Shown: one piece after another, positions 1-64,000 of the stretch
Layout: each line of letters starts with the position of its first letter
How positions within the stretch are numbered: position 1 is the first letter of the stretch
Assembly (NCBI GenBank): GCA_964373175.1
Contig: CAYJTP010000002.1
Location: 40,402 to 104,401 of the forward strand
DNA: 64,000 nt
Direction of reading: 5' to 3'
Source: an uncultured Planctomycetales bacterium
GTDB lineage: Bacteria; Omnitrophota; Gorgyraeia; Aquiviventales; Aquiviventaceae
The notes under the pieces: model-generated
Told to the model about the DNA's origin: nothing
The model's input: only the letters and a program-made list of their open reading frames with translations
Database searches by the model: none
Position numbers and translations under genes: made by a program

Positions 1-20
1 CGGAGTTCGGAACAGCATTT

Positions 21-27000: not shown

Positions 27001-30000
27001 CGAGCTTAGAGGAGATTCGATCCCGCCCAGGAGGTCTTTTGGTGCGCGTGGAGAATGAACCGCTTGATGAACAGGTGGTGCTAACCGACCGTTTGCAATT
27101 CCGCCAGGGGGACATGGCAAGGGACTTGTACACCGACCTAGCGGGTCGTGTGAACGTTATCCGGCATGCGAATGTATTGCATTATCTCAGCGAGGAGGCG
27201 TTCCAGCACACGATCGAAAACGTGTTTCGCTACGCTCAAGCTCGGCCCCAGGGACTGTTGTACCATGTCGGGAAAGCAGACATCAGTGATCCCGGCTTCC
27301 TTGATCAACTGATCTTTGATATCGGTGGGCAGTCGGCACGTGATTGGAGGTTAGTGTACGCTGGCTACCTCGGCTCAGGCTCAGCAAAGGAGCACAGCCC
27401 AGAATTTGCGCCAGAGCAGCTCATTGCCAAAGAGGAGGCCATTTCGAAACGGGTGCTCGCGATCCATCAAAAAGCCCTTGAACTTTCGGCGCATCTGCAT
27501 GGTGGGCAACTTGACGAGGCACTCGATCGCTTTGGCCGACTGCGCCAAGAGGCGCAAGACCAGCTCATGCAGTTCCTGTTTTCAGCGCATCCCCGAACCA
27601 TTTCTGAAGAGCTGACGCGTACAATCCTCCAGGACATCTTGCTGATCAGCCCATGGACACGGCATAGTGAATACACTGGCAGTTATTACCGTGATCAACG
27701 GGTCATGGTTCCACACGAGCTGGGGTGGCGGTTTGTGGAGTTACCACGAGACCTCAACGACCTCCTCGACGAACTTCTTCAGCTATTAACCACTCGTGCC
27801 TTTCAAACTCAGGGTCAGACCCCCGACAGTCACAGGACGGAACTGCAACACGCGCTCTTCAACGCCCTCACCGACATTGAGCTTAAGGCACAACCTGTCG
27901 AACCTCGCCAGGCTCCAGTCTATCGAGTGCCTGTTGGTAAGCTCAGCGTCCAACGGCTCCACGAAGCCGCAGCTTCGGTGCGCGCGCAGGTCACCGAAAA
28001 AGAACCGGTGGGGTTTGTTGAGCTACGGCCTGAGCACCTGGCCGACCTTGAGACAGCGCTGGCCAATTCTGACCTCACGCAGGCGCTTGAGGAACTTCGC
28101 GATGATCAACAGGTGAGGGTGCTGCTGGTTGCCAGCGCACAGGACCTTCACACTGACCCGCTTCACCGGTTGCACCGGCGCTTGGGTGAGCTGGGTATCC
28201 AGATTGCGCCCCCCATTGCTGACATCGAGCGGTTCGCGGATGACTGGCCGCCGGAGTGGACGCCGGAAGGACTTTCCCCTGAAGACTTGGCCGATGGCGA
28301 GGCGTACCACCGCGCGCTGTATCACGATGGGGATGTCAACCGACCAGTGAGCTGGCATGAGGAAGAAAGTCGCAAGCTCATCGAGCGGGCCTTCCGCTAC
28401 ATCAAGGATGGTGACGTCGTGGTGGACTACGGCACCGGAACTGGCGGCTCAGCCATCGAACTCCTCAAGGCGCTGGATGAGCGTGGGATCAGGGTTACGT
28501 TGGTCTGTGTGGATCCGCTGGCCTCGTGGTTTAGCAAGGCCTGGCAGTTACTCCACCATCGCGCCGATGTCCAGTTCTACTCCCTGTGGGATCCAACGAC
28601 GCGCAAGATGCGTCCACTCACTGAAATCCTGGGTTCCCACAAAGCCAACGTGATCGTCTCGGGCAGTACCTTCCACCTCATCCCCCAGAAAGCCTTTGGC
28701 CGAGCAATGCAAGACCTTGCGGATTCGCTGGTGGATGGCGGCGCGCTCCTTTGGAACAGCGGAGACATCGCCCTTGAGGGGGGCAAGCGTCCAGAGGACG
28801 CGGTACTCCTTCACGATCCCTATCGATCCATGCGGAAGGTGGCGATAGAACGGGTGAACACCGAGGGGGAATTCGCGACGCTGCGAGCCTCGCTCACGGA
28901 GGATGAACGCAAGGCCGCTGAAACGCGTGCCAATCGGATCTTTCCTCCGCAACCTCTGACAATCGATCAGATCCGGCAAGCCTTGACCGCAGCCGGGTTT
29001 GTCGACGGACGAATCACCCATGAACGGATCGAGGTGCTGGATGAGGATTCGGTTCAGTTCATCTCAACGGTCCCTCGGCTCCTGGACTTCCTTAGCGAGG
29101 TCCAAGATCCCAGTGTTCGTCAGGGGGTTATCAAGCACGTCATGCGCGAACAGGTGCTGCCCGAATTTCACAAGCAGCCAGCCGGCACCATCGAGGGGAT
29201 TCAGACATTCTGGACGTTCGGGGAGTTCATCAAGCCCGTTCTTGCGCCAACCAAACCTGAAACCGGTTCACCCGATCGGTTTGCCAAGGGGCAACCGGTA
29301 CCAAGTACCGAGGGGTCAGGTTCCGCCGCGCCGCCAACTGAGACAGCCACCATCGACTGGACCAATTCTCCGGTGCTCACTCAGCAGGAGCTGGCTGACC
29401 GCCTGAATGAGCCGGTCCACAACGTCCTGAACCTGCCAGGCTTCGCAGGCACGTTCAGGGTGGGAGACTTGTTGGTTCGTTCCCCGCAGGAGCGGGAGGG
29501 TTTTGAGATTGTTCAGCTCGCCAGCGGCAAACTCGTGCTGCGCTACAACCAGACGATCGTCGGGGGCAAGGCGGCTGAGCCGTCCGACATCGACGCGTTG
29601 TGGGAGGCACTTCGGGCCAAGGATCATAAGCGGACGCAGGCACTCATCAAGCAGCTTCACAAGCAACCGGAGACCTGGGTGTGGAAGGTGCACAAGCGCA
29701 CGGTGACCAAGATATCCGAGCGCATTGGCAAGCTGGGCCAGGAGCTTGGTCTTGACGAGCAGCACGCCGATGCGTTGGTTGTGACTGCTTCAGAGCTTAT
29801 GAATAACATCGCGCGTCACGCTGAGAAAGGGGTCGTGGTACTGCGTAAGGTCACGGTTGACGGGAGGGTGGGTGTTGAGGTGTTGGCGCTCGACCGAGGC
29901 CGAGGATTGCCTGAAGCGAGGAAGTTGGAAATTCTCAAAGGGAGGTTGCCGCTTGATTGGCAACGTCAAACAGGTCGAGGGTACGCGATCATCACGAATT

Positions 30001-33000
30001 ACAAGAACGTCCAGCACCTCATCGACGACTTGCAGGTCGACTCTCGGCCAGGCGAAGGTGTGAAGGTCACTCTCCGAACCCGGCTGCCTGTTGACACCAC
30101 AAGCAGGGCAGAACAGCAGTTCTCCGAATATCCACTGCAGGGAGGCGCCACCCTGCGGACGCGTCTTGCCGTGGAAGAGGTGAAACGCTTGCGCACCGGG
30201 CACGTGGTGGTCGCCGATGCCGCGAATCAGTTGAGGCTGGTGATTGAGTTGCCTAGCCTGCTTGGGAGCGTGGGGACATCCCTCGCACTCGCCAATGAGC
30301 TCCTTGGGACAGATCTTGTTCAAGAGATCGCTGACCGAGCAGCCAGGGATCCCAATCGAATCGTGACGGTTGTGGACTGGGGTTGTGGCAATGGGAGTAC
30401 GTTGAGGGAGCTTGCCACAGCCCTGCACCAACGCGGGATCACCAACGTCAGGCTGGTGGGATTTGCCAATATGTACTTTGATGAGTGGCAGGAGGCCCCC
30501 TCGAACGTCACATTCGTGCTCGATACGGCTGATCATCTTCTCAACTATTTCTCAGAGGGAGAAGTCGATCTGATCTACAGTCTCAGTGGACTGAAATACT
30601 TAGCCTGGCGAGCCTATCTCAAGCATCTGAAACAGCTTCGCTCCAGCCTCCAGCCAGACGGTGTCATCCTCGATGCTCCTAGGAGGCTCATGCTCTTCTA
30701 TCAATTCGGCCTTCCCATGTTCAAGGTGAGTAAGGTTGGTGTTGGTCGTCTTGGTGCTCGACTGACTCCAAAACCCACCTCTGTCTTCAAGGAAGGCGTG
30801 TTCAGTGATGGCCCACTGTCAAATCCTCCGCTGCGGAGATCTTTTGAGGGCACCTATTCCAGACCGGATCAGCCGCTGACCTTCGGCGCAGACTTCGGGT
30901 TTGGCCAGTTTGTTGAGCGCCTCAGGGACTTGTGGCGGCGGCTCATGCCGCGGCTGGCCAGGCGAACGACCCCAACCCAGCTGACGTGGCAGGCCCTGCA
31001 GCCGTTTGAGCGGATCTTGCTGGTCGATGATCGAGCGATGGTCTTGGCTTCGCTGTTGGCGTTCCTCAGAGCGCGCATGCCGACTGCCTCGTTTGACGTG
31101 GCCCGCGACCGGATGGAAGCGATCGCAACACTCACCGCTTCTCAACAAGCTGGCACACCCTTCGACCTGGTGGTCACGGACTTGAAGATGGGAGACGATC
31201 TGCTCACGATGCCTGTTGAACAGAAGCAGGGCGGCAAGCTCATCGCAGACATCCGGAGGAGCGCGTCGCTCGGTCGTCAGCCACGCATCGTCGTCTTGGC
31301 GGCTGGTGCGGCGAGCGAGGCGACGACGTTGCAACGCCTTGGAGCCGATGCGGTCGTGGATAAGCTTAGCGATGGATTCCTGGATCAGCTGTGGGAAACG
31401 ATCACCCACCTGCCCGATGAGGCCCTGGCGCGGGACACGGAGGAATGGCTGCGTCAGCATGCGACGGACAAACGCATCGACCCAGAACTCATCCGGCTGC
31501 AACGGGAGTTCCTGGAGCGCCTTCGCATCTTGCGAGAAATCAACAAGGAGAGGCAGCAGCCTGGAAGCGGCAACATCCACAAGATCGCCCTCGTGAGCAA
31601 ATTGCAAGGCCAGGCGAAGAAAGGGGCTGCGCTGTTGAGAATGGCCCAGCACGAGGGGATCGACTTCATGTACGCGCTTGGCGATGTGATTGGTCGTGGC
31701 GAGAAAGCCCACCTGCTGTTACGGACGATCCGGGCCTGGATGCAGCAACACAGGCCTCCTCACCTCGAGCTCCTCATCGGGGCGAATGAAGCGAAATTCA
31801 TGGCAGCGATGATGGGCCATCCGAAGTTTTCATCCCGCTTCCTCGACCCCATCGGGGGCGGACGAGCCCTGCTTAAAGAGGTGGGGGCCACGGAAGAGAC
31901 CTTCCGGTTCAATCGACAGCTCGTGGAGGATCTTCGCTTCATCCAAGACCATTTCCTGCTCTTTGACTATGACCTCGTGCATGGGGTGGGCATGGGATTT
32001 AGCTATCCGATCAATGACGACGGTCAACTGGCCGTGAACTTCTTCGGAGAAACAGGACCGCAAGCCCTGGCGAAGATCGAGGCGAGTATCCGGGCTTCGA
32101 GCAGTCTCAAAGGGTCTGTCCTGAACCACCTGCTGGCACTCCTGTTTGCCTTGGAAGAGAAACAGGCCGCTTCGCTGCCGGTGAAAGCCAAGGAACTGAT
32201 CGACGGGAAGCACACGACGATCGACGAGCTGCTTGAACACTTCAAAGTGCTCGGTCAAGGACATGAGCTGCTGCGATTTGTCCTGACAGAACCGAAAGAA
32301 GGAACACATCTTGCGCTCTTTGGGGATCGGGTCATCGGCATCATGGATGGAGCAGCTCATGAAGCGGACAGCGTCTTAGTGCTGGGGGGCGAAGGGATCC
32401 GTTGGTGGACGTGGAACGCCAAGCACGGGCGGTACGACCCGGGCAACGAGGTGCTTGAGGGCGCGACCTACCTCAACCAATTGGAAGGCCTGCACAAGGG
32501 CTGGATTGAGACCCATCGAACAGAAATCGCGTGGCGAAAGGAAGCCGCTGAGCTAGCTCAGAGCTCGGGGTGGGTCGATGAGCTGATCCGAAGGGTCAGG
32601 GACTTCCTCTCAGACCGCCTGCGCGCCTTCCGCTATGACCGGCGCAGCGACTACTATGTGAGCCGATTCATGAACCGGATGTATCAGGAAGGCTGGTACA
32701 TCGGGCGGGATGGCATCCTGCAACAAGGCATATCCAAGCATGAGCCGTCTGAGGCGTACCGGCAGCTCTTCAAAGCCGCGGAAATCCAAGCCCTTCATGG
32801 GAATATCATCCTGAATCGCAAGACGGGTGAGGCCGCCTTCCTCTTTGCGGATGAGAAAACAAATCCAGGACAACCGGATCTGTCCTATGTGACCTATCTG
32901 CTCCTGAAGAAGAACCCCGACCTCGTCTTGGTGGCTGATGACATCGCCCGGGCGTTTACACTGGGAGGGAAACTCTACGGAGGAACGCTGCCCTTAGTGC

Positions 33001-36000
33001 ATATCGGACAGGACCTGGTGGCGCTCGACTACAAGGATGACACAGGATTGCTGGTCGAACCGATGCTGGATGGCAAGCCGATTGTCCCGCAAGAAGGATT
33101 TGTCCCGATGACGAAAGTCATTTGGCTGAACTATGGCCGTGAGCCAGCCATGTCTCGCCAAGACATCATCCGGCGCATCTTGCGATCCCAAAAAGACCGG
33201 CACCATGTGTTAAGTCGTCGCTTCCTCAGAGGAGCCGTGGGACTGGAGGTTGAAGAGGTTCGGGTACCGCAATACAAGGTGTTTGAAAATGCCGCGAAAA
33301 TCGTGGCTAGAGATCTCCAAGGACTCTTTGATGAACACCACCCCCACCCGTTCTTGGGTCTTCGGCGGTGGGCGAAGATCGTAGCGCGGATCTTCAACCA
33401 GCCCCAGCCGTACCAGAAGTGGGAAGCCAAGGTCCTGAGGGAGAAGACCGCAACGCACATCCCGTTGATCCAGTTCCTTCGATCCTGGCTGAAAGTCGTC
33501 TTGTGGGTCGGCGTGGGCCCCTTTGCGAGTGTCACGCTCGCTATGCTCACCGGGATGGGAGGACGGGATGCAAAGCAGCCAGAGCCGCCGACCCAGCCGA
33601 GACGCCTCCTTGTGGTTGATGACAATGCCGCTGTGTTGGAGAAGGTCAAAGCCGCGCTGACGGCCCAAGGCTACGAGGTGGAGACGGCGCAAGGGGGCGA
33701 TGATGCACTTGCGCTCTACCAAGAGGCTCGAGACGCCGGCTGGCCGTTTGCCGCGGTCGTGACGGATCTGGCGATGCCGCCGCAGATGGATGGGATTCAG
33801 TTGCTCTCGGCGCTTCGACGACTCGATCCGACGTTGCCCATTGTGTTGCAGACATCAGAGACGACTGACGTCATTTTCCAGAAGCTCAAAGTGACAGATG
33901 GGGCGGACAGCGCAGACCAAACCAAGGGCCTCATCATTATGAAGAAGGCGGATGAGCATCTTGACAAGCTCGTGGGATTGCTGGCTCAGCTCCTCGGACC
34001 GACGACACTCCAAAATCCGCAGCCTTCCGCTGGCCAGGTATCTAGGTCTGTAGTTGATCAGTATTTGTCAGCAGAGGAACTTCAGCGATTCCAGGCGATC
34101 CGGGAGCTTCGGGAACGCAACCGAGGTGCGCTGTTCCACAAGGTCTTTGGACAACCCGATGCGCCGCCTGTGGCGTGGGGCGATCTCTCGCCAGAAGACG
34201 AGGTGCGCTTTGCGATCTGGGACTCAAGGATCTTGGATTCCCACAAACGGATGCATCGCGAAGAGCGCCAAGCCCTCATCGACATCTTGGCGAAGCGCGG
34301 GAACCTTTCTGACCATCTGCTGACCCTGTTGGACTCACAGTCCCGGCAAGTGAGCCGGCGTGCTCTCTTGGCGTTGATGGATCCCACCTTGCCAGTCAGC
34401 CGTAAGCGAAGGCTGATCCAGGCGCTGGAGCGCTTGTTCCATCGCTATGAGTCCTCTCCGCTTGAGCCGTTCTTCATCATCAAGGCGATGGAAGGTCAGG
34501 GGGCGGTGGGAGCGCTCAAGCGGATTGTCAAGGAGAGTCCTTCATGGCGAGCGGATGCGCAAGCGGCCCTCGAGCACATTCGCGCCTGGGAACAACCCCG
34601 TCGATTGGATGGCCGATTTGACAAGAAGCCGGGCGGAGACTGGCAACATGTGCTCACCGCCATGCTGTGGCACCCCGATCTGCTGGTGTCGGCTGAGACG
34701 GGCAAGCTGACGATTGCGAAATACCGAGCAGTGGACAGCACCGTGGAGGAATCCACAACCCGGAGAGATTTTGCCGACCTGGTACGGCTTGGCTACCTCA
34801 TCCCCGATGCTTCGACCAAGCCCTACACCTATCGCCTGGATTTTGTGCGGCTCCAAGACTATGACCCTGAAGCCCGGCAACGAGCCCAGACCATTCAGCT
34901 TGAGAAAGACATAGTCTCAATGCTGGTTGACGCGCTGACTGACCAGCTTGAGCAGCCCCTCGGCAATCTGGAGGGTCGCGTGCTCCTCGTTGGATCCCGG
35001 TACAGTCATGCCCAGCTTGCCGAACTCGCCCGGACGTTCCACAACGCCACTGTGGTTGGGATCGGGCAGCATCAGGGGCGGCTGGACATGATCAAGAAAA
35101 TCCTCAAGGCGTGGTATCCAGACCTCTGGCCTCGGATTGACCTGCGGCACGCCCCTGCCCACGATCTCCACGGCGTGATTCCGGATCGGTCGATGAAGCT
35201 GGTGATCGTGCCGACGGCGCGTGAACTCTTCGACGAGGCTGGCAACCCGCCAAGGCTGCGGCGCCTGCTGTCCGAGGCGGTCCGGGTGCTTGAGCCAAAC
35301 GGGGTTCTCCTGGCCGGATTGGGGCACCTGAGTCTCTCGCGGCAGATCCTGACAGACGAACTGGGGATGGAGGACCTTGATTCGGCCCGGCACCATCCCC
35401 TGGTGCTGCTCTTCAGGAAACCCGCTGCGAACACAACCACATCAGGTGCGCACACAGGATTTGTCCGCCGCGTGATTCTGCTTGTTGTGGTGGCCCTCAT
35501 GGTCCTCGTCGGCGCGCCAAAGGCCTTCACGCAGACTCTGGTCCTGGATCGGACAGAGCAGATCGCCCAGGGTCAGACCCCTAGGGCAATCACCAAATTG
35601 CAAGTTCCAAATAAGTTCCAAGCTCCAATCACCAATCACCAAACGCGGGACACGGTTTCAGAGACCACCACGCCCGCGGCTCAAGACACCGCGATCGTCA
35701 ACGAACTGGTACGGCGCGGGTTCACCGAAGATGAAGCGAAGATGGTGATTGAGGAGCAGCGGCTTCTTGTGCAACGCGTAGCCCCGCATCTGTCTGAGGA
35801 AGAACTCCAACAACTCCATTGGCACACCTATCCGAAGAGCGCGGGGACGCTGCTTCAGCGGTCACTCAGGACAGTGATTGAGTTGGGTGTCCTGGCTGGG
35901 CTGTGGGTCTGGTATCTTGTCTGGTCGTGGAGATCCATCAAGCGAGACCGAGGGAAGTCGCTACCCCCAGGGCTCATTTTTGGAATCGGCCTGTTGATGC

Positions 36001-39000
36001 TCACCTCAACAATGATAGATCCAGTGACCAAGCCAGGTGGGTTTTCCGACACCTTGAACAAGCGCATCTTTGTCACAAGCGGTTGGGCTTCTTCGAAGCT
36101 CTTCCGGGCCTTAGCGACTCATGAGACAGCCCACCAGCTCTATCCTGTGGTCCTCACTGGGATCAACCACGATGTCATCTTCGCATTGGGGAACCTGCGG
36201 CTCTTTGAACTTGGCGCACGGGAGCTCGCAGGCTCACCCTTCTTGCCGACGAAAGGTGCGTCCGCTACGAGAGCCTGGGAACTGGGTCAGCAGACGAACA
36301 ATCCTGGCAACGCCTGGCTCTACCTGCGCCTGATCGCGGAAGGCAAGACGCCTGAGGAGGCCGAGGCGATCGTGCGCTCAGGTCGGCCGTCTTCGCAGGG
36401 TATTCAGGGTTCGGCAGCGCAAGCTCAGGGTCAGACCCCCAGCACAAAATTTGGCGATTTTCCCGCACAGGGTCTGACCCCAAGCCTCCCTCAAGCGAAG
36501 CCGAGGAAGCTGACGGAGGCCGATAGTTTGTTCATCGATGCGGAGGCGTGGGTGAATGGCATCCACACGTTCAAGGTCGCGGGTGCTTACCTGCAGGCGG
36601 CAGCGCGTGCATCCCTGCGCGGCTTTCTCCTCAATATCAGAGAAGCTGTGGCAGATCAAATGGCCATTGACACGAGCTTGAGCCAAGTCTATTCCGACGT
36701 GGCCAAGGACGTTGAAGAAGCCCTCGACACAACTGAGCAGTGGGTCAATGCCCCACGAACCGTTCGAGCCATCCGTGCGTGGGTGAAGGAACTCCGTACG
36801 CTTGCTGACCAACCTGACATGGCAGGACCTGTTCCGGATAGCCTCAAAGTCCAGTTGCTTGAACAACTTCAGGGGCAGCTCCGCAGACTTGCAGATCAGG
36901 TTCCGATTCGGCCGTTGCCGAAAGCGCTGCGACCCCTCCGGCCTGAACGACCTAATCCAGACCCGTGGTGGCTTGATGCGCCAGAGCTGAAGCAACCAGA
37001 GCGCCCCGAGGAATTCAAACATCGCCAACCGCAGCCGGATTCAAGCCGCCAGGTTGAGCCGAATCGCAAAGACTCTGGCCGTGATCTCCTCCTGCCGTTG
37101 TTCCTGGGTCTTGGCCTTATGTGGATGGGAGTAAGAGGAAAACACTCATACCCAGGCGACGAAGTGATCAAAGAGTGGATCACGCGATATCAGGCCAACG
37201 CCTCTGCGATCGCTAAGGGTGAGAAGAAACATCGGACCACAATCAGGCGCTGGATCAAGCGTTTTATCCAGAGCGACCCAGCGCAACGTGAGCAACGTCA
37301 ACAATGGGTTGACGCACTTCGAGAACAAAGGGATGATCCAAGGGATAAGTACCCTGGTGATGTTCAGATGAAGGAACTGATCCAGACGTACCAGGCTAAC
37401 ACCTATGCTCTTGCCAAAGCCAAGCACGTCAGTCAGTCCACTGCGTCTGAGTGGATCAACCGTTATATTCGGGGAGAGCCTAGCCAAAGCGGCAAGCGTC
37501 TTGCTTGGGTCAATACGCTTCGGAGACAAAGAGGCGCCCTATACGACCTGTACCCAGGCGATCGTAAGATGGAAAACTTACTCCGCACATACCGGGCGAA
37601 CAGCCGCTTTCTCGCTGAGGTTCTGAATGTCAGTCCCACCACTGTTTGGAGATGGATCAGGCGGTATGTTCAGGCCGATCCTCGCCAACGCGACAAGCGT
37701 TCTACCTGGGTCGAGGCGCTTCGAAGACAAAGGCGTCACGAGCAGAGGGATGAGTACCCTGGCAATCGTGAGATGGAAACATTGATCCGCACACACCAGG
37801 CTAATAGCGCTGCGATTGCTAGGGCTGTGCACGTCCATCGCACCACTGTTTGGAGATGGATCAAGCGTTTTATCCAGAGCGACCCAGCCCGACAGGAAGA
37901 ACGTCAGCAGTGGGTCGAGACACTTCGAAGACAAGTGAGTTACCCAGGTGACTCGAAGTTTGAGCGGTGGGTTTACGAATACGAGGCAAACGGGTTGGCT
38001 ATTGCCAAAGCCACCAGGGCTCATCCTGCAACCATTCACGGTTGGCTCAAGCGGTATATCCAAAGCGACCCGGAACATCGCGCAGCGCTGGTGGACCGTG
38101 TCAGAGCTCTTCGGCCAATCCTTCGCAGATGGAGGCGGTGGTTTACACGCAACTATCAAGGGCTCGGAGAGGAAGCCTACTACCAGCGCACGATCCCCGC
38201 GCTGATCCAACATTGGGGAGAAGACGCTAAACGGCTAGACCAAGCGTTAGGAGTCATTCTCACGAAGGGCCTTGAGGCTCCCCACAACCAGATCGATGGC
38301 TACTTTGCTGAACCCATCCCCGCGCTTCTTGAGGCTCACGCAAAGCAAGACCTCTCAACATTCGAGCGCGGTGTGGATGACGCTGTTGCTAAGCTGCGCG
38401 CAAACCGGACCACAATAAAACGCACGGCACATCTTCAACCAGTCACCCGTCGCGGATCCGGCACCCTCTTTTTTGAGGCGGGCAGCGCGGTGCTGGTGGG
38501 CTCGACGGCGATCGCACTGCTTGCGCTGGTGGTGCCGAATTGGGTTGTCCTTGCTCTTCTTGGCGTGTTCGGGGTGGCGGCTGCGCTCTATACAAAGTGG
38601 GTGATCTGGTTGGCGAAACAAGGGTTCGGACTCTTCACCAACGAGCAGCGTCTTGGCCGTGTGGATTATCCAAGGATTGTGGGCGCTGCTGCTGTCATCA
38701 CGATGGTGACGGCTGGGACACTCAGCATGCCGACGGCTGTGGCGGTTGTGTGGATGGTGCTGCTCTTGAGTGTGCTGTCAGCCCTTTCAGCACATACACT
38801 CCGCAATCTAGTAGAGACAGTCCTGGAAGACCATCTCCCCACCGTTGAGTGGGAATCGCTATCACGGAAGTGGAAACACGACGAGCAGACTATTGATACC
38901 ATTTCCTACGCTGGAAGTTTGATTGGACTGTTCGGCGGGGCTTATCTTTACTCCTCCTTCTTCTTCTTGTGGCTTTTCTATATGATGAGTGGCTTCTATG

Positions 39001-42000
39001 CAGCCAAGGCAGTCTCCAGTGTTATCCTCACGCGGTCCTTCCTTCGTGAGGCGGCGCAACGGTATGGCATGCCTCAGGGTGTCTTCTGGAAATCGATGTT
39101 GACATTCAGCCGCAACAAGGAGGTCGGTCTTCCGACTCTGCAGAAACCGGCTTCGCAAAAACTTCTGCCCCCCCACAATGACGGATCCGGCACCCTCTTT
39201 TTTGAGGCGGGCAGCGCGGTGCTGGTCGGTGGGGCTGCGATCGCGGTGCTGATGCTGTCATTGGGGCAACTGTTTGGCCTGACGGTGTTGGCCGGCTTGA
39301 TGGCGTTAGTCGCTTATCTTAGCAGTCTCACGGTGCATCAACGATACTTCGAGGGCCAATCCGAAGATCATCATCACCTGTGGCAGAACTTCTTGGTCAA
39401 CCGACGTTGGTTTGCGGGTGGGATGAGCCTCGTCTCAGCTAATCTGCCTGTGTTTGTGCTCCGGCAATTTGATGCGCCAGTGGAGTGGCTCAATATGTTG
39501 CCCTATGGGCTCGCGGGGATCTTCGTTGGCTACATGCTGTTTAGTCTGCTCCTGATCCCGCTTGTCCAAAGAGCCAAGCAGCTTGGGTTGACCGAGCGGT
39601 TTGCGGTGACGCTGCAAGATAAGCGCGGGATGCATGTCTTTCCGAACATCAAGATCTCTCAGCTTGTTAATCGCATGCTTCAAGAAACCCCATCCCTTGA
39701 GCGCATCGAGGTCGGCTTTGTGGGGTATCAAAAGACGCTTCGTGTTACGCGAGATGCCCCGTTGAAAGAAAATGACCTGACCATCTTGGCAAGCGAACTC
39801 CCCCAGGATACCCCGCAGAATGTCGTGCGATTCACCGTGGTGGGACACAGTCGTCGTAATCTTGAGCGTGTGAAGCGCCTTATCAAAGGTGGCTTCCAGC
39901 ACATCAACGAGCTGAGCCAGCCAAAGCCCTCTCCTGAAGTCCTCGATCCTGAGCGAACCTGGCAGCAACTCGTGGCGCAAGTGGAACACCTCACCCCAGC
40001 GCAGCGGCCTCAATTCATCGACACGCTCTACCAGGAGCTCATCCTGAATCGGCCCAGACACGCTGTGTCGTCCAAGACCCTTGCACTGGCGCGTCGCAAC
40101 GATACGCTCTTGAAGCGACTGCGAGAGACCGACAACCCTGCGCTTTGGACCGTGTACCAAGGCCTCGAGGACCGTTACGTCGAGCGCGTGAGGGCGTTTT
40201 TCACGCAACGGGTGCGGCCGCTGTCAGCGCAGCTTGATGCGTGGCGCGATTGGCCATCTGGGCCTGTGGCACGGCCGATGAAGGACTCGACCGATCCTGA
40301 GGTTCAAGAGATGTATGGGCGGTTGGTTGAGCTCTTCAAGGGTATTCACGAGACGAGCGTCATCCCACTTGACTTGCATCTGGAGCTGGCCAGGCAGGGA
40401 CTCCTCGGCCCTCAATATCCGCAGGAGTTTGGAGGACTGGGATTGTCAGAGCATGCCTGGGTGCGGCTGGCCGCCGAGAGCGCCAGACACAGCTCCGGGG
40501 TGACGGTCTCGCAGATCAACGTGAACACCGGGATTGTGCTTGACATTCTGAAGGATCAACCCGAGGAGATCAAGCGACAGCGGATGCCTCGCATCTTGAG
40601 AGGGAAAGTCTTCGGGGCGTTCCTCCTGAGTGAGAAAGACGCCGGCTCTCACAACGCCAATCTCAAGAGCCACGCCGAAGACGGCAAGGCGACTGGCGAC
40701 AACGTCTTCATCACCAACGGCATTGTGCTGCCGCCGAATTTCAAAGAGCTCTTGGAACTTGAGGAGGAGATTCTCCGCAAGGAACGAGAGGTCTGGCGTG
40801 GTGAGAAACCGGAGCTTGCCGAGTTGAAGGCGTACCTCGGACAAGTCCGCCGGACGTTTGGGGTCTATCGGGCCATGGAACATCTCGGGATCAAAGCGGC
40901 TTGGACGGTGCCGCGTGGGACGCAGCCTGCAGACGAAGGCATTTCTGCCCTGCTCATCATCCTGAAGGAGCCAGGCACGGTTCCCATCCGCCCAGGTGGA
41001 GGGGGCGACCACCTGCAGCTTGCAGAAGGCGTATTGGTGAAGGGTGAGGATACCGTTGGGCAGAAGGGCTCAGGGACAGCCAGCATGTTCTTCAAGGACG
41101 TTCCGGTCCGAACCGTGATCGGACGATTGGGTGAGTTCCTGAAGGCTCTCCAGAGCGGCCGAGGGACCGTGGGCGCCCACGCGCTTGGGCTCTCCGAAGA
41201 TGTGGAGGGTCTGCTCCGAGAAGCGATAGAGGCTGTCCGCACAGGCAAGCAGCAGGGCGTTGAACCGGATGTCCTGGCACAAGCCGAAGCGTTGTTGGAC
41301 GAGCTGCATTGGCAAAACCGTCTGATGCGGCGCTTCATTGAGGAGACGGCCCTGGCGAAGGACCACGGGGAGAATGTTGTGGTTCGGGCGGCATTGGCCA
41401 AGCTGTTTGCCTCGGAGATGGCTACACGGGCCGCAAGCGAGGCCTACCAGATGGCGCACAGTCTGAACGCCGATTCAGCGCTCATCAACCGACTGGACAT
41501 GCGCTTTCGCGATGCGAAGGTGATGGAGATCTACGAGGGCACGAATGAGATTCAACGGCTCTTCGTCATCACGCCATCGCTCTTGGAGAACACAGACCAG
41601 CAATATCAACACATCCTGGCCATGCTGCGGGAAGACCAGAAGCCAATCACATTCTTCCCGAAGGCACTCAAGGGACTCATCCATCTGCGCAACCAACTCC
41701 TCGACGCCTTTCGCCAAGATCTCCAGCATATCCTTCCTACCTGGGTCATGGCGCGCAGCCCTGAGGACACCGCCCCGACAGTGACGGTGAAGCAACTTGC
41801 GCCCTTTGTGTTGCCCGATGTCGAGATGCGCCTCCTGACACTCGTTGAGGCGTACCATGCCTACCGGGCTGCTACGAAAGACGAGGTTCCGCTCTGGGAA
41901 CGTCACCTCCGCTACCTCATCGAAGAGTTTCTCGGTTTCTTCGGAACAACATTCGCGAACCTTCCGCATGACGCGCAAACGCAACTTGAGGACAAGCTCC

Positions 42001-45000
42001 AAGCGGTGAAAGACACCATCCGGACTTGGCATGTCCAAGAGATCGCCCGATTGATCACGGCGTTCGATGAACCCAAGCGGCCGATGGTGCTGGTGATCGG
42101 TGGAGACGAGCTGTTGACCAGCCGATCAATCGCTGAGCACAAGCCACTGGTGATGCACCAACCAGTCCTTCAGCAGGTCATCCAACGGATGAAGAAAGGC
42201 GATACCATCCTGGTGGGCGGCTACGCGGCCAGCGGCTTCCAGACGGCGCTCGATCTTGGTACGCCGCAGTCCGATGAGTCGGTGGACGAATTCCTGGTGC
42301 GCAAAGAGCGCGAGCTTGCCCCTGGGTTTACTACAAGCGACCTCGGCAAGCTCAACCAGGCTCAATTTGAAGAGGCGAAGGTCGCCTATCGGTTGCTTGA
42401 TCTCGCCCGGCAGCGAGGGGTCGAGGTACGGGTGGCGCAGATCAGCTACACCGAACCAGGGACAGGGCGCTTCAAGTATCATCCGGACCTGCTGGTGGAC
42501 GATCAAGAGCGCTTCATTCACAAGCTCCGGCATGCAAAGACCATCCTCTGGATCGGCCAAGCATTGGGTCTCACAGAGACCGCGACCACGACTGAGATCA
42601 AGCGCATCGCAATGGAACAGGTTGAGAAACGACAGACCGCCATCTACGTCAACGAGAATCCTGACCACCTCGAGGCGGCCCTGCACTTCCTGAACAGCGG
42701 CGGGTCGTTGCCTGAACGCTACCAGGCCCTTGAGCCAGAGGTGCTCAAACTCCTCCGCGGAGAGCCTGCTCAAACCAGAGAAGCGCCTGACACTTCAAAG
42801 ATAGCTCAACTGGCGGTGCTTGGACAGGTTCCAGCCGTTGATCATGCCAGTCGGGATACCTCACAACTAGCGGAATGGGTGCGCAAACATCGAGTTGGCC
42901 GTGTGACCATCAACCCGAACTGGGTTCGAGACGCCATTGTCAGTGGGTCCTACGACGACCTGATCCAGGATGGTCTTGCCAAGGACTATTCGGCACAACA
43001 GATCTACCGGGAAATCGTGGCTAATCTCGTGACTCGTACAGCTAATGTCCTCAGAGAACAGCATAAGGAAAGTCAGGGCCGGGATGGCATGGTGAGCATC
43101 CAGGTGAGCCCTGAAGCCTATCGTTCGGCTGAAGAGATCCTTGAAGAAGCACGGTGGATTTATGAACACACGCCAGAAAATGTGGACATCAAAATCCCTG
43201 CGACCCCCGAAGGCCTCAAGGCCATTGAGCAGGCTGTGGCTGAAGGCATTCGGGTGAATGTGACAAATCTGTTTCCAGATGTGACCTATGACACTGACCG
43301 TGATAAATTCCACGCCGAACAGTATGAGGCTGTGGTTGAAGCGTACCTGAAAGGGTTGGAGCGGTACGTTGAGCGCGTCCGGAGCCAGATGGCTCCTAAG
43401 CAGTTGCAAAGGCATCTTAGCCGGTTAGGTTCAGTCATCAGTATTTGGCTTCGCATGATTGACGACCTTGCGGATTCTCATCTTCCCGTCGAGTGGCGTG
43501 GAAAATTGAGCATCGCACAGGCGAAGGTGCTCTATGAACTTCATGAACGGCTCTTTCAGTCGGAGCGATTTCAACGCCTGGCGGTCCTCGGCGCAAGACC
43601 ACCCCGTCTCTTATGGGCCAATACCCGTGTCAAACCCGAGGTTCATTTTGTCCGATGGCACGGCCAAACTGGCTTTGATGAAACCCGAGAGTACTTCCAC
43701 TACATCGAACCACTCATCGGTCCAGACACGTTATCGACCATGCTTCCTGACACCCTTGAGCGCTACGCTCTCAACGGAGATCCGCAACCGCGGCTACGGC
43801 TTGGGGTAAATGAGGCAAAGCGCGCTGTCAAGGCCATTGCGCAACTCCTAGAGCGTGCAGGGACGAGTGCGCGAGAGATCCATGAGCGTGCAGTGCAAGA
43901 GAGCTTGGTAGCCTTTGGACATGCCGCGCAGCAATCTGTTGAGTATATTCAGCTCTATGAGTTAAGGCCAGCCATCAAAGATGTGATACTCGCGATTGAT
44001 CATCGGCTCAGTGACCAGGGTGGATTGGTGGCGATTGATGGGCCGTCTGCGGGCAGGAAAAACACGTTGGCGAAAGGGGTAGAAGGTCAGTATGAGAAAA
44101 CCCATCCTGGCCGCAGGATCGTTGTGCTAGACCTCGATGAATTGTATGTGTCGCGAGAGCGAAGACAAGCCATTATCAAACGGCTCATAGGAGACCAACT
44201 GACAGAAGCGGAGGAACAGCTGCTCACGGAGCACGACCGTGCGACGATGGAGCCAGGCAAAGACTACCTGCACGAAGAAGAGGTCGTTTGGAAGAACGAT
44301 ACGATCCTCGAGGTGTTGCAGCGGATTCACGCCTTTCTCAAGGCGGGCCATCCAGAAAACGCGGAGCTTTCTTTCAACATTGATGCGTACGATCACAGCA
44401 TTCGACAAACTCACCCGAAGCCTTACACGATCAAACGCGGGGACATCGTGTTGGTCATAGGGAAGTTCGCCAGCCGCGAGCCGCTTGCCCAGTTGTATGA
44501 TCTCAAGGTTCGAGTGCTTGATCATCTCAAGAGCGCCAGGCAGCGCTATGAAGCTCGAGAACGGCAACGGAGAACGTCCGAGGAAGCCGATCGCCTGATG
44601 AAGTTTTACGACTCAGCCCTTGTGCCGAGCTGGGAAGCCTACGACACACGGACCCGGAACCTCATTGACCTCGTTGTTGATCTCGGTAACGCCACAACCG
44701 CCTGGAAAGGCCCGACCAGTCCTCGAGCGCCTCCTGGAGCCCAGTCTTTCGCGAGCCTCTTGAGTGTCCTCGCAAACCCGCTCGTCTTTCTCACCACCTC
44801 ACTGGCGCTGGTCGTGGCGGCATGCACAAAGCCGACGGTGAAAGACTCCCTGGCGAGCCGAGCGCCTCTGGTCCTGACGGCTAGCGACTCTGCTCGCATC
44901 GCGCAGTTGATTGGGCAGTCCCGCGCCACCTATCTGTCTAGAGATTTCAAGGCCGCCTTGAAATTGTTCGAGCAATTGCAATTGCTCGCGCCGAATTTTG

Positions 45001-48000
45001 ACATGTACTACAACACGGGCCTGACCAGATTTCTGCTCGGCCAGCTTGAGCAGGACTCAGGTCGAGCCAAGCCCGCCCACGAGTACTACGAACGCTCCAT
45101 CGCGGATTTTGACACCTCGATTGCCCTCAAGCCAACCTTGGAAGCGTATTACCATCGGGGCCTGGCGTTCTACAACGTGCAGCAGGAAGAGAACGCCATT
45201 GAGGATTTCAAGCAGGCCCTGGCCTTTGAGGAGGCCTCCAGGCTTCCTCCGGGATCGCAGGCAGAGCTCCTGCGTGCCTTAAGCGCCGCGTACGTGGCTC
45301 ATCGCGACTACCAGGCGGCCCTCCTCTACAGCCACCAGTCGCTTGCCCTCAAGCCAACGTTGGAGGGTTATTACTACCGAGGGCTGGCGTTCTACGGTCT
45401 TGGCCAAGAAAGCGATGCACGGGCTGACGAGGCTGTCGATTCGGTTGAGCAAGACGCGGCGTTGCAGGAGGCCTATCAGTCTTATCTGGATGCTGCCGTG
45501 GATCTTGAGGAGGCGCTGGCCTCGGAGGAATTCTCGTTGTTAAGCCCGCGCACGCAAGCTGAGCTGCATCGAGCCCTTGGCGCGACCTCTTTTGCGCTTG
45601 CCGAGTATGGTGAGGCGATCAAGCAGTATGACGAAGCGCTTCGTCTTGATCCTGACAACGCTGAGCTGTACATCAGACGTGCTGAGAGTTATGCCCTTTC
45701 CGGATCGACGTGGTTTGCCATCCAGGATTTCAAGGAAGCGATTAAGCGAGGCGCAGAGCAAGCGGTCAAGGCCTCCCTCGCTAAACTCCGCAGGCTCGGG
45801 ATCGAGATTATCATCCCGATGATCCTCGCGCCGGTGGTCGGCCTCCTCGCCTGGGCGGCGCACCTGTTTGGGCTTGGTGGCGCGGAGCAGACGGCAGGGT
45901 TTGTGCTCAGCATGGCGATACCGATGAGCGTGCCAATCGCGAACGCGATTCGCGCAAGGTGGATCGATGTGCTTCCCGATCATGTGCGTTTTGGCAAGGG
46001 ACCGATTATTGACCAAGCCATTCGCGCGGCGTTCGCTCATGCGATCCAAAATCCTGAGCAAGATGCCGAAGGCGCCATTGTTGACACTGCACAAGCGCTC
46101 GCGGAGGACTTATTACCACCAGGCGCACAGGACAGCTACACCGCGCTCATCCAGCGCGCGCAACACCTGACAAGCGATCCAAGGAAGCTCGTGGTTCTCC
46201 TGCGACAGCCGCTTCTTGAGGCACAAGAGCTTAAGCTCCAGTTCACAAATGGCCGCGATCAGTCCATGCGCTTTTTTTATCGCTTTGATCTCAAAGAGCT
46301 AATTGGACAGCGGAGGAATGGAGATCGGCATCCCCAGAAGAAGCCGATGGGACCAGCAGCCACGGCCAAAGCGGAGCAAATCGCCGTCGCGCTCTGGGAA
46401 CTTCGCGATGAGGTCAAAGCTGGTTTGCTGGATTTTCCACGGTTTAGAAAGTACTTGGTCGTGCATGAACTGCGCAAACGCAAAGGCCAGCAGTTTCTCT
46501 CTCCTTGGACATTAAGTGTTTATCCCCGGCACTCCCAAGCCGTCCAAGAGGCCTTACGAGAGCTGAAGCGTGCGATCGAGGAGCGCCAGGAGCAAAAACG
46601 CCAAGCGGGGCAACTCGTCTACGACTACGTCCACGCGGAGCGGGCTGCCAAAGTGATTGATGAACAGCTCACGCAACTTGAGCAACAACTCGATCGTGGA
46701 GAAAAGCCACGCTACAAAGTCTCAGAGGAAACATTCTCCGGACACATCGATCTCTCCCGCCAAACGCTGGCCAAGCACCTCACGTGGAATCCGGTGTTTC
46801 GTACAAGGTTTGAGTCTTTGCAAGAGAAGACAAAGGATTTCCGCGATTACCTCTCGAAGGTCCTTCAGCGTCTCGCTTCGGAATATCCCGGCCGCTGGTG
46901 GACAGTCAAGAAAATCCGCCAACACGCCCAGATGACTGAGGTCGCTCACGATAAGACGTATCATGATTTGGAGCAGCTTGCCAAAGATCCGTCCTCAGGT
47001 GTGAAAAAGGAACCCAGAGCGAGCCGCAGTCCCTATAAACCCAATCGCTATCGCTTCGTCTCTCAAGGCACAGTCGTCCTTGCGATCCTCCTGCCGCTCC
47101 TCGGCGGCCTGGCCTATCCTCTGCACCTGATTGCGGGGGCAGGCGATGCGTTGCTCAGTGCGGTGTTGCTTGGTGGATTTGCTGGTTTTCTCGGTGTGAC
47201 TGTCTCACTCAAGCAACTGTCGGCGATTTTGCGAGACACCCTGAGAGAAGGATCAGACAAGCTCGTCACCCTCTACTGGTTAGCGAAAACTGAACTGGCC
47301 CTGGGCCATCTCGAGGAAGCCTATACCCGGTCCGCCTCCGGATTGGCCCAGGCCGTTGTCGCCCAGCAAACACTCAAGCTCACTGGTCGGGAACGCGAGG
47401 GTGAGCTGGCAGAGCTGGACAGACAGATCGCTGATCTGGTCGATCTCCACGCCAAGGTCCTCTTGAAACGAAGACACCACGACGATGTGGATCGCGCGAT
47501 CGCCATCTTATCCCAGGCGGTGAAGGACCACCCCGAGGCCTTCTTCCTCCGGATCACCCTCGCGAAGGCCTACGAAACCAAGACCAACACCCCAGGTCTC
47601 CACGAGAGCGACCGCCGCTTTGCCTTGAAGCAAGCGGAGGCGACAATCCGCAAGGCCGTTAAGGACCTCTCGACGTCCCCACAGTATTCCAGGATCGCTG
47701 AATCTTACGCGAACCTCCCCGCCTGGCAGGACCGAATTGATGAGGCGATTCACGTGCTGAGTGCCGGTGGGCGCCATGTGAAACGGCAGTTTCGAGGAAA
47801 TCGGTTGATCCAGCAATTGTTCTCTCACCTCGTCAGGCTTCGGGATGGCACACGGCGTTCGGGTAAGGCCGAGACAATCCTCAAGCTTGCCGTCGGATTC
47901 CTCAGCCTCAGACTCCTTGATTTGACCGTGCAAGCCCTCAGCCACGGTGCCTCTAAGAACATGGTATCTGATACCATTTCCCAGGCGACTCTCTTCAGGC

Positions 48001-63065: not shown

Positions 63066-63113
63066 AGACATGAGGCACAGGAGACCAGACACAACAAATG
63101 GGTAGTAAAAAGA

Positions 63114-63169
63114 GGGGTCAGACCCTGTGCGGGAATTTTGTCAGTTTTCGTGCGAAGGGTCTGACCCTG
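63114..63169. repeat. REP-like palindromic element ~50 nt after the giant ORF stop
   Basis: The arms gggtcagaccc (63115-63125) and gggtctgaccc (63158-63168) form a stem of about 12 bp with a ~30-nt loop. No U-tract follows. It is the same family as 36423-36480, in the opposite orientation. Confidence 0.75.
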
Positions 63170-63253
63170 AGCACGCTCACGGCAGGGGAACAGGGAAAGA
63201 GGGGACTGTCAAGAGTCTTCCAGGGCTCTCTTAGTACAAGATAAAAAAAGCAC

Positions 63254-63282
63254 TTGACAAGCTTTTTGAAAGATATTATTAT
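63254..63282 (+). promoter_or_regulatory. Sigma70-like promoter for the downstream gene
   Basis: TTGACA (63254-63259), a 17-nt spacer, then TATTAT (63277-63282), within an AT-rich patch. Confidence 0.55.
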
Positions 63283-63360
63283 ATGGCATCCTTTTCCTAT
63301 GTCTCGCTTGTGTCTAGGCTAACCACGGTGAGAGCTGATGGCTGTAAGAGGCCTGAAGTG

Positions 63361-64000
63361 ATGGGGAAGTCGAAGACAGGACGGCTTGGCATCTGGGCTG
63401 TCGTGTTCTTCTGCAGCGTGTTCCAGATCAGCCTAGCGGGTTCTAAAGTCGAGGCGGCTCAGACGTCCCAGGGTCTTCTGGACGCTTCCGATCTCGCCAT
63501 CCCCGAAGATCTTGGTTACGTGGTCGAAACTCATCGGCCAACCCCTTCCACCTCGTCCCATCCTGCCCTTGTTATCCACATCCAAGAAGCGCACACCAAC
63601 TACGAAGGCCAGCAGCACCTCGCGGGGATTCTCGAGCATCTCATCAAGCAGTACGGGCTTCGACTGATCCTCGTGGAAGGGGGGCAGGGGGATGTGGGCC
63701 TGTCCTACCTGCGCAGCTACGGTCCCCCAGAGACTCGCAAACAGGTCGCTGGCAAATACCTGAAAGCCGGCATCCTGAGCGGGGAGGAGTACTTGGATAT
63801 GGTCTCCGACTATCCGCTCATTCTCTGGGGGGTGGAGCAGCAGGATCTCTACCAGCAAAACGTCGAGGCGTTCCTGAAAGCCGAGGAAGTCCGGGATTCC
63901 CTGAAGCCCCTAGTCGCTTCGGTGAGGGAGGCGATCGAGCTCGTCAAACCCAAGGTGCAGGACCCCGCCCTGCAGGAGCTGGACACCAAGGGCCAGGCGT
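63361..64000 (+). CDS. Secreted hypothetical protein (3'-truncated by the window edge)
   Basis: The ATG at 63361 is preceded by AAGAGG 9 nt upstream. My hand translation is stop-free to nt 64000. The N-terminal 'MGKSKTGRLGIWAVVFFCSVFQISLAGSKVEAAQ' looks like a Sec signal peptide. This ORF is absent from the ORF track, presumably because no stop falls within the window. Confidence 0.65.
   Translation, partial: MGKSKTGRLGIWAVVFFCSVFQISLAGSKVEAAQTSQGLLDASDLAIPEDLGYVVETHRPTPSTSSHPALVIHIQEAHTNYEGQQHLAGILEHLIKQYGLRLILVEGGQGDVGLSYLRSYGPPETRKQVAGKYLKAGILSGEEYLDMVSDYPLILWGVEQQDLYQQNVEAFLKAEEVRDSLKPLVASVREAIELVKPKVQDPALQELDTKGQA

Follow-up and report, generated by a model that had tools for sequence, protein, structure and literature searches.

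In-frame insertions of palindromic or MITE-like elements into genes have been documented for Rickettsia palindromic elements (RPEs), ERIC and others (PMC10969869). RPEs (Ogata et al. 2000), as far as the account in PMC10969869 goes, are approximately 100–150 bp long, occur only in Rickettsia, encode a conserved peptide and are present in dozens of copies. REP and REPIN elements are mobilised by RAYT transposases (PMC3686654, PMC3116915), and a conserved 5′ GT(A/G)G tetranucleotide beside the palindrome is a hallmark of REP (PMC3686654). Giant proteins of the Archaeovorin type are found in Omnitrophota and carry a SecA-like domain, an N-terminal C39/S8 peptidase and NUDIX (bioRxiv 10.1101/2023.11.21.568195). 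Here we describe a palindromic element that is found once in frame within a giant ORF and once, inverted, shortly after the stop codon of that ORF.

A single ORF makes up 98.5% of the window, by which we mean the whole 64,000-nt stretch of DNA that was analyzed (Table 1). The ORF extends past the left window edge, its frame (frame 3) being open as early as nt 3, and hence its length is at least 21,020 codons. Codon-position GC periodicity is maintained along the entire ORF. Pfam matches include CofD, cytidylate kinase, ROK, methyltransferases, response regulator, HTH, acyl-CoA dehydrogenase, transaldolase, GT4/GT1, alpha/beta hydrolase and TPR, and about 38 TM-like segments are present. With more than 20,000 aa, a non-repetitive sequence and many TM helices, the ORF is similar to the Archaeovorin giant proteins of Omnitrophota, which likewise combine multiple enzymes with multiple transmembrane segments (bioRxiv 10.1101/2023.11.21.568195). 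The Archaeovorin combination of glycosyltransferases, methyltransferases, other enzymes and many TM helices is found in it, and TPR, HATPase and HAD domains are also common to both. No SecA-like, C39/S8 peptidase or NUDIX domain was detected in the 21,020 aa within the window; the N-terminus of the ORF lies outside it. An intergenic-looking hairpin/tandem array, read in two frames, occurs at the module junction at 58751–58882.

Table 1. Coordinates of the giant ORF, the repeat copies and their neighbors in the window.
Feature	Position	Strand	Description
Giant ORF	3..63065	+	At least 21,020 codons; TAG 63063-63065; mosaic of enzyme, regulatory and transmembrane modules
Solo site CAAGCTCAAGGTCAGACCC	26088..26106	+	18/19 nt identical to the left end of the in-ORF copy; read QAQGQTL
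Solo site CTCAGGGTCAGACCCCC	27808..27824	+	17/17 nt identical to the in-ORF copy; read TQGQTP
Solo site CAGGGTCAGACCCC	35568..35581	+	Read AQGQTP
Upstream module (aa 11898-12140)	35694..36422	+	Two TM helices and HExxH domain, end ...AEGKTPEEAEAIVRS; from phmmer, blastp and alignment
In-ORF full copy	36423..36485	+	63 nt; 11-nt arms 36428-36438 and 36470-36480
Downstream helical module (aa 12165-12306)	36495..36920	+	Homologous to P0012 and P0011
Intergenic full copy	63112..63173	-	Inverted relative to the in-ORF copy; arms 63115-63125 and 63157-63167
Promoter-like site of next gene (ATG 63361)	63254..63282	+	TTGACA-17-TATTAT, 11/12 matches

The two full copies represent the same palindromic element in opposite orientations. 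This match had been noted in the initial annotation, and it was confirmed by aligning the in-ORF copy with the reverse complement of the intergenic copy. The alignment is ungapped and collinear with 49/59 nt identical (our count from the alignment), and it has a diverged centre between identical ends of 16 nt and 22 nt, where 16 and 21 nt had been reported. Copy-to-copy matches were also recovered by blastn-short (E 1e-3 and 2.4e-7) and by nhmmer (E 1e-22 to 1e-24 for the two copies). A repeat search placed the arms of the in-ORF copy at 36423-36438/36470-36485 (16 nt, 88% complementary, spaced 31 nt) and those of the intergenic copy at 63115-63135/63147-63167 (21 nt, 81% complementary). The 11-nt arms GGGTCAGACCC/GGGTCTGACCC with 31 nt between them are present in both. 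Terminal inverted repeats with arms of 11–16 nt are present, and a search for direct repeats flanking both full copies, as in a target-site duplication, revealed none that were evident. Neither GTAG nor GTGG stands beside any arm in the flanks that were read, the sole GTAG being 10 nt from an arm of the intergenic copy.

The in-ORF copy begins at a codon boundary, is free of stop codons and makes up exactly 21 in-frame codons (aa 12141-12161, peptide AQGQTPSTKFGDFPAQGLTPS). The second copy had been placed in non-coding DNA about 50 nt past the TAG; it starts 47–50 nt after the stop codon and lies approximately 90 nt upstream of the next gene's promoter, the promoter-like site in Table 1 bounding the spacer that contains it. 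Full copies are thus present once in 295 nt of spacer versus once in 63 kb of ORF, a density about 200-fold higher in non-coding DNA. RNA folding of the + strand gave hairpins of -29.3 kcal/mol (z -4.7) for the in-ORF copy and -36.7 kcal/mol (z -5.0) for the intergenic copy, far better than shuffled sequences (z -4.2 to -6.9 for the hairpin strength of both full copies).

Additional sites were sought with GGGTCAGACCC allowing at most one mismatch. Fourteen matches were found in the window compared with 1.7 +/- 1.5 in shuffles, and 0/100 shuffles reached 14. GGGTCWGACC is the commonest 10-mer of the window, and exact GGGTCWGACCC sites number 7 in 64 kb versus approximately 0.1 expected. Other frequent 10-mers were considered as repeat signals and rejected as ordinary codon or peptide effects. 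The family in the 64 kb comprises 2 full and 3 solo members. The solo members had been described as half-sites; they are present at 26096, 27812 and 35570 and read QGQT(L/P) as reported, but they are complete 11-bp palindromes, and the one at 35.57 kb is GCCCAGGGTCAGACCCC rather than CTCAGGG. Only the two full copies form hairpins, those at the three solo sites being no better than shuffles (z 0.1, 1.4 and -1.8). The four A-type (QGQT) sites share one orientation and one reading frame (p ~0.04 if independent), which is not predicted by simple random insertion. Words resembling GAGACCAGAGAC were not significantly enriched by the stop codon.

All four QGQT sites are coded CAR-GGT-CAG-ACC, in which GGT is the rarest glycine codon (267/1503), and the remaining four GQT sites in the ORF use different codons. 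The inverted arm of the in-ORF copy translates to QGLT. Because the QGQT codons are identical, the rarest glycine codon included, because one copy is non-coding and because the inverted arm reads QGLT, the element is a DNA-level repeat and not a peptide motif.

To describe the surroundings of the in-ORF copy, homologs of the flanking sequence and an AlphaFold model were examined. Homologs of the upstream module include stand-alone proteins ending 0–25 aa past the module end, and P0005, P0006 and P0009 are complete stand-alone genes of this kind (loci L128/L129, L127 and L123). For the downstream module, homologous sequence is found in the stand-alone 224-aa protein P0012 and in the 2663-aa P0011 (aa 252-396). 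In query numbering, where the element is 261-281, flanking homology ends at about 244-267 and restarts at about 289, varying by homolog, and 8/8 aligned homologs have gaps at the element position. The model has pLDDT 83-96 at query residues 150-250 of the upstream module and places the downstream helices at residues 292-419 (pLDDT 60-87), while residues 253-291 have pLDDT 33-41 and no predicted secondary structure. Judged from homology and the model, the in-ORF copy sits in a non-homologous, apparently unstructured linker between two autonomous modules. The characterization of this sequence as an intergenic-type, REP/MITE-like nucleotide repeat with one copy translated in frame at a junction is upheld by the codon identity, the non-coding copy, the homology gap and the predicted lack of structure.

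Each solo site had likewise been assigned to a linker between modules. This is supported by homology for the 35.57 kb site, as it is for the full copy at 36.4 kb, and is made plausible by composition for the 26.1 kb site, which a Pro/Glu/Gln-rich stretch precedes. A TM helix (aa 11824-11842) lies ahead of the 35.57 kb site and the HExxH module begins beyond it, the intervening stretch being variable, an arrangement also seen in homolog P0003; AT-rich low-complexity DNA of the CAATCACCAA type (35581-35645) follows the site on its 3′ side. Groundwater assemblies GCA_016193195.1 and GCA_016206685.1 are the source of the relatives, which are mosaics, not collinear orthologs. The GGTCWGACC motif is absent from related loci L123-L126, and none of the homologs found is an ortholog in which the element site is empty or split. 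Searching proteins by word index with aa 11667-12666 as the query yielded zero matches. The next gene downstream had one match, 57% identical, on a 1-kb contig without a giant gene upstream.

The family was then sought elsewhere. Six-frame translations of both copies had zero matches among proteins, and Rfam searches of both copies returned only noise. A metagenome scan with a family-specific 19-mer and a viral scan with a 17-mer gave one and three chance matches, respectively. A genome-contig scan with both arms recovered at least 120 matches from unrelated families, the inner sequence being in none of the matches listed, and this two-arm pattern is too unspecific for a family census. The core GGGGTCWGACCCC, a 13-bp palindrome, builds REP-like inverted pairs in more than 10 phyla. 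It was found in 9 viral contigs versus 0, 0 and 0 for three composition-matched palindromes. Elements bearing the core are mostly intergenic and avoid long open frames, 32% having no frame longer than 300 nt compared with 4% of random positions. Of the 128 listed, 4 lie in frame in Pfam-confirmed genes of unrelated bacteria, encoding an HrpA-like helicase, a GH36 alpha-galactosidase, an IorA/POR-like enzyme and a methyltransferase. In the searchable literature, the GGGGTCWGACCCC motif turned up only in unrelated primer or viral sequences, and no description of it was found. The presence of the core in many phyla could point to a protein partner or structural constraint; that one common partner or constraint underlies its sharing across phyla and with viral contigs is an improbable reading.

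Our best explanation, held with moderate confidence, is that the full copies belong to a small, lineage-private REP/MITE-like family and that the in-ORF copy was inserted in frame into a linker, where it is tolerated. Each full copy is an inverted doublet of the 11–13 bp GGGTCWGACCC palindrome around a variable centre of about 31 nt, a REPIN-like build. The intergenic copy occupies the usual REP location, a 3′ untranslated spacer from the giant-gene stop to the next promoter, where it is predicted to form a strong hairpin in the sense transcript. By analogy with REP, this hairpin may protect or define the 3′ end of the mRNA. The in-ORF copy would be the same putatively mobile DNA, flipped, that landed or was retained in a stop-free frame, where it would contribute about 21 hydrophilic residues and be tolerated as neutral. 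Since the ORF takes up nearly all of the window, almost any local copy must land inside it, and the copies that survived would be those that are in frame, free of stops and in linkers. The three solo 11-mers may be single units, similar to REP singlets, or decayed copies of the family. We infer the insertion rather than see it, because no empty site or ortholog was found. Of the two readings in the initial annotation, frame-preserving insertion of an element is the better fit, and the core elements lying in frame in four unrelated bacteria are a precedent for it.

The other reading, that the ORF grew by gene welding through stop-codon loss and that the REP at 36.4 kb sat in a former intergenic spacer now read as linker, is less likely. 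The element starts about 14 aa past EEAEAIVRS, P0005, P0006 and P0009 end 10–25 aa after that point, and the element ends about 15 aa ahead of where homology to stand-alone P0012 begins; a junction at the natural gene ends of relatives fits gene fusion equally well. Furthermore, the modules are split in relatives over several shorter ORFs with spacers of 36–300 nt, and in L124 a separate HTH gene comes after the P0012 gene, which matches the module order of the giant ORF (the HTH ORF of L124 had no blastp match to the giant ORF at E 1e-6). The array at the 58751–58882 junction also speaks for this reading. Against absorption, the 30 codons next to each site have an almost normal GC3 (15th-32nd percentile); small windows had shown low GC3, but most of this signal is lost once the motif codons are left out and 30 flanking codons are taken. 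In-frame SD+start motifs are not in excess (48 in frame versus 70 and 5 in the other frames), and by our reading of the sequence the post-stop copy would meet a TGA on read-through. No split version of the junction occurs in the data, because the relatives are mosaics. A related proposal is more doubtful still, namely that the GGGTCWGACCC sites are seams of the giant gene, in which REP DNA was caught during welding, and/or short in-frame repeats of one shared orientation and frame that serve as joints for in-frame recombination, which would shuffle, delete or duplicate modules among these mosaic giant proteins.

GGGTCWGACCC might instead be an iterated palindrome, over-represented genome-wide in a manner comparable to HIP1 of cyanobacteria or uptake sequences. 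A sequence-specific process, for example a methyltransferase, a DNA-binding protein or a bias in uptake or repair, would keep it in both coding and non-coding DNA, with inverted pairs after genes. Uptake sequences in coding DNA are reported to lie in one frame and orientation, as the coding sites do here, and an inverted pair directly follows the stop codon. The completeness of the palindrome at every supposed half-site, the excess of exact sites and the spread of the core over many phyla also point in this direction. Nevertheless, we regard this explanation as improbable. Similarity reaches past the 11-mer into ends of 16–22 nt and a collinear alignment of 59 nt, which is typical of a repeat family, and paired elements in other genomes avoid long open frames. 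The density is about 1 per 9 kb, and that of HIP1 or USS is roughly 10 times higher. Finally, QGQTP as a selected linker peptide, with the post-stop copy unrelated, is highly improbable: linkers rich in Gln, Gly, Thr and Pro are common and every ORF site reads QGQT, but synonymous positions are identical at 4/4 sites, the non-coding copy aligns along its length and the peptide is found in 0/13 homologs, so that codon identity and copy-to-copy alignment effectively refute a peptide motif or coincidence.

If the preferred reading of a tolerated REP/MITE-like insertion is true, selfish palindromic DNA is accommodated in linkers between modules of the largest bacterial proteins known, much as RPEs are in Rickettsia enzymes. 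The elements would then be usable as markers of module boundaries and would be candidate substrates for module shuffling among related giant proteins. The protein would most likely gain about 21 neutral residues and the mRNA a hairpin, which is a small practical consequence. A further outcome is the palindromic core GGGGTCWGACCCC, found repeatedly in REP-like elements of many phyla.

The element shares with HIP1 and uptake sequences a short over-represented palindrome, preferred coding frames and inverted pairs after genes, but its density is much lower and its similarity spans about 60 nt. Like the MITEs ERIC, BOX and those of Anabaena, it is a small non-autonomous inverted-repeat element of a type that is at times intragenic and translated (PMC10969869), although no target-site duplication was identified and 60 nt is at the small extreme. 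The likeness to REP and REPIN elements is closer: a short imperfect palindrome forms an inverted doublet that folds into a long hairpin, singlets occur beside doublets, stems are conserved around a variable centre, and the location is typically extragenic and often just downstream of genes (PMC3686654, PMC3116915). It differs from REP in lacking an adjacent GT(A/G)G and in that every arm is itself a perfect palindrome, and no RAYT gene, which REPs would flank, is present in the 64-kb window. REP families reach high copy numbers and lie almost exclusively between genes. By sequence, size and host it is not an RPE; it is about 60 nt long, has no sequence similarity to RPEs, was seen in one in-frame full copy and belongs to a 58% GC host with an Archaeovorin-like giant multi-module ORF instead of Rickettsia. 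What it has in common with RPEs, as far as they are described in PMC10969869, is a palindromic, hairpin-capable sequence that is both intergenic and in frame in genes, where it adds a short peptide at a site that folding can accommodate. As in RPEs, the in-frame, stop-free segment lies in what homology and low pLDDT suggest is a structurally permissive part of the protein.

Re-reading of the window bore out the initial annotation's sequence description of two full copies of a palindromic element, one inside the giant frame-3 ORF (copy 1) and one intergenic (copy 2). Copy 1 matches the reverse complement of copy 2, as had been claimed: 49/59 nt are identical in an ungapped alignment, with identical ends of 16 and 22 nt and a centre that is about half identical. 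Copy 2 starts 47-50 nt into the 295-nt spacer after the TAG (63063-65) of the giant ORF. The 11-mer GGGTCWGACCC, allowing at most one mismatch, occurs 14 times in the window versus 1.7 expected, and the palindrome is the commonest 10-mer of the window. RNA folding of both copies, which the initial annotation had proposed, gave structures far more stable than shuffled controls (z -4.2 to -6.9). Energies for copies 1 and 2 were -29.3 and -36.7 kcal/mol on the sense strand and -44.3 and -28.3 kcal/mol on the antisense strand. The three solo sites, lone 11-bp palindromes in the giant ORF, folded no better than shuffled controls. By our own reading, three of the six frames of copy 2 lack a stop, and the palindrome core has a stop in only 1/6 frames (GTC TGA).

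Features of the window and of matching loci, with arms and motifs
Feature	Position	Strand	Description
Copy 1	36423-36485	+	arms GCTCAGGGTCAGACCC / GGGTCTGACCCCAAGC, 31 nt between
Copy 2	63115-63167	-	arms GGGTCAGACCCTGTGCGGGAA / TTCGTGCGAAGGGTCTGACCC
Upstream module	query residues 6-255		two TM helices and HExxH domain, end ...AEGKTPEEAEAIVRS
Residues encoded by copy 1	query residues 261-281
Downstream helical module	query residues 274 (phmmer) or 289 (blastp) to 441
Second array	58751-58882		GC-rich hairpin/tandem inside giant ORF, between GT1 and alpha/beta-hydrolase modules
Promoter-like site, strong	63254-63282		TTGACA-17-TATTAT, 3' end of spacer region holding copy 2
Divergent promoter-like site	63278-63305	-	GAGACA-16-TATAAT, pointing towards copy 2 hairpin
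Next gene	63361-64000		ATG 63361, signal-peptide protein
In-frame element, L078	6248-6299		HrpA-like helicase, GSDPPRGQTPNPNRGLTP between Helicase_C and HA2
In-frame element, L045	4476-4540		GH36 alpha-galactosidase
In-frame element, L070	2272-2317		IorA/POR-like enzyme
In-frame element, L115	4132-4175		Methyltransf_28 protein

The element is a DNA-level repeat rather than a peptide motif. 4/4 QGQT peptides of the giant ORF are encoded CAR-GGT-CAG-ACC, and GGT is its least used glycine codon (267/1503). The other GQT tripeptides (n=4) use different codons. The inverted arm of copy 1 translates as QGLT, copy 2 is untranslated, and QGQT is absent from 13/13 homologs of the modules flanking copy 1.

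Within the window the open frame of the host gene spans nt 3-63065 (21,020 codons); the gene itself extends past the left window edge. Codon-position GC is 0.65/0.42/0.67 with periodicity maintained throughout, and the ORF is not repetitive internally. Enzyme and regulatory domains, each full-length, form a mosaic along it: CofD, cytidylate kinase, ROK, several methyltransferases, a response regulator, HTH repeats, acyl-CoA dehydrogenase, transaldolase, GT4/GT1, alpha/beta hydrolase and TPR, with ~38 TM-like segments. In this it agrees with the published Archaeovorin-type giant proteins of Omnitrophota (bioRxiv 10.1101/2023.11.21.568195). Cysteine is strongly depleted (9 among 21,020 residues), and 4/9 form two CxxC pairs (aa 7070/7073 and 8875/8878). 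Since Trp, Tyr and Gln occur at normal levels, the depletion is not a general avoidance of stop-adjacent codons.

An exhaustive phmmer search with aa 11881-12380 of the giant ORF against 1.84 billion representatives returned 13 relatives. Copy 1 is placed exactly at a module junction, and the residues it encodes lie opposite gaps in every homolog of the multiple alignment. The upstream module forms stand-alone complete genes in P0005, P0006 and P0009, ending 10-25 aa past IVRS; P0005 has tilS/ftsH on one side and a thioredoxin-reductase-like gene on the other. The downstream module stands alone in P0012 (224 aa), with a separate HTH gene after it; module and HTH come in this order in the giant ORF too. 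An AlphaFold2 model from 9 sequences (mean pLDDT 64) scored 83-96 in the HExxH domain and 60-87 in the helical domain. Residues 251-318 scored 33-41, with no secondary structure predicted at 253-291. Elsewhere (L123-L129) the modules at 35694-36920 are small stand-alone genes or are reordered inside other large proteins; ORF a of L126 matches aa 12153-12306 and 20267-20640 of the giant ORF in a different module order. Such stand-alone and reordered modules show these giant proteins to be shuffled mosaics of autonomous units. Shortly 3' of copy 1, 37149-38114 (aa 12383-12704) encodes 4-5 tandem ~67-aa HTH-containing repeats of 42-48% mutual identity.

The claim that the solo sites also lie at module linkers held in part. 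The 35.57 kb site falls in a stretch of variable sequence that, as in P0003, separates a TM helix from the beginning of the HExxH module; the 26.1 kb site comes after a Pro/Glu/Gln-rich stretch. Directly 3' of the 35570 site, 35581-35645 is AT-rich DNA of low complexity, has heptamer-like repeats of CAATCACCAA and is translated ...ITKLQVPNKFQAPITNHQT; its 'PITNHQ' repeat type recurs in L115, where it lies upstream of the methyltransferase gene.

Around copy 2, no U-tract follows the hairpin on the sense strand. On the antisense strand a U-rich run, CUCUUUUUAC, follows it (63105-63115, minus strand). As the divergent promoter-like site points towards it, the hairpin could be a terminator of antisense transcription into the giant gene.

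A scan of GTDB genomes with the arm-pair pattern gave at least 120 matches. Among the matches listed, the 13-bp palindromic core GGGGTCWGACCCC usually lies within longer palindromes, often several per locus, in Actinomycetota, Bacillota, Bacteroidota, Planctomycetota, Verrucomicrobiota, Acidobacteriota, Alpha-, Beta- and Gammaproteobacteria, Gemmatimonadota, Omnitrophota, Elusimicrobiota and Saccharibacteria. Across >10 phyla of bacteria, and also in viral contigs, it forms the core of REP-like inverted pairs and arrays (L001-L120, L133-L141). In viral contigs the pattern had 9 loci versus 0, 0 and 0 for three composition-matched palindromes. No literature on this palindrome was found. Among the matches listed, 32% of 128 elements are without any frame open >300 nt (random positions, 4%), and stretches open for 1.5 kb or more contain only 13% (random positions, 43%). 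After a coding-periodicity filter and Pfam confirmation of the gene, 4/128 of these elements lie in frame, in four unrelated bacteria, and read GSDP/GQTP/GLTP/VRP. Open-frame avoidance together with these four cases means that palindromic elements built on this core keep mainly to intergenic DNA, yet are recurrently tolerated in frame.

Searches for the family itself were negative. A 1000-aa region of the giant ORF had no match in a word-indexed protein search, a family-specific 19-mer and 17-mer had nothing beyond chance matches in metagenome and viral contigs, and element translations in all open frames had no protein match. The motif is also absent from related loci L123-L126. Since the sole database relative of the next gene, on a 1-kb ENA contig, is 57% identical, the source lineage is essentially unsampled.

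On balance we favor, by a modest degree of confidence, a lineage-private REP/MITE-like inverted doublet, of which copies 1 and 2 are each a full example. Copy 2 would be a 3'-UTR hairpin and, by analogy with REPs, may stabilize or define the mRNA 3' end. Copy 1 would be an insertion that keeps the frame and is tolerated in a disordered linker; because the giant ORF fills 98.5% of the window, survival of such a copy is unsurprising. It is unlikely that the linker is instead a former intergenic spacer taken in by gene fusion. The junction does coincide with natural protein ends and starts, relatives have shorter multi-ORF arrangements, and a second intergenic-looking array lies at another junction. 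However, GC3 of the flanks is near normal, SD-plus-start fossils are not in excess, and the relatives are mosaic rather than collinear. Within the second array a 33-nt sequence recurs perfectly as a direct repeat, at 58806 and at 58846, and the 40-nt spacing puts its two copies in different reading frames (RRMLSAGRGDQ, PADAFGGPGRPE). A 12-nt direct repeat, GAGACCAGAGAC, brackets the array 120 nt apart, keeping the whole block in frame. That the sites are seams of gene fusion or joints for recombination, or that a partner lies behind the palindromic core shared across phyla, is in either case conceivable but unsupported, and rather improbable. We give slightly less credence to an iterated palindrome like HIP1 or USS. 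A peptide motif or chance is effectively refuted by the shared codons at all QGQT sites, the untranslated copy and the lack of any homolog with the peptide.

The inverted doublet has its closest architectural counterpart in the REP/REPIN doublet. REPs are defined by a GT(A/G)G tetranucleotide (PMC3686654), which the element lacks, and we stop short of calling it a REP sensu stricto. In function, its nearest analogues are the Rickettsia palindromic element and other MITEs that give rise to in-frame fusions (PMC10969869). The phenomenon is of a known kind, in an unusual host gene.
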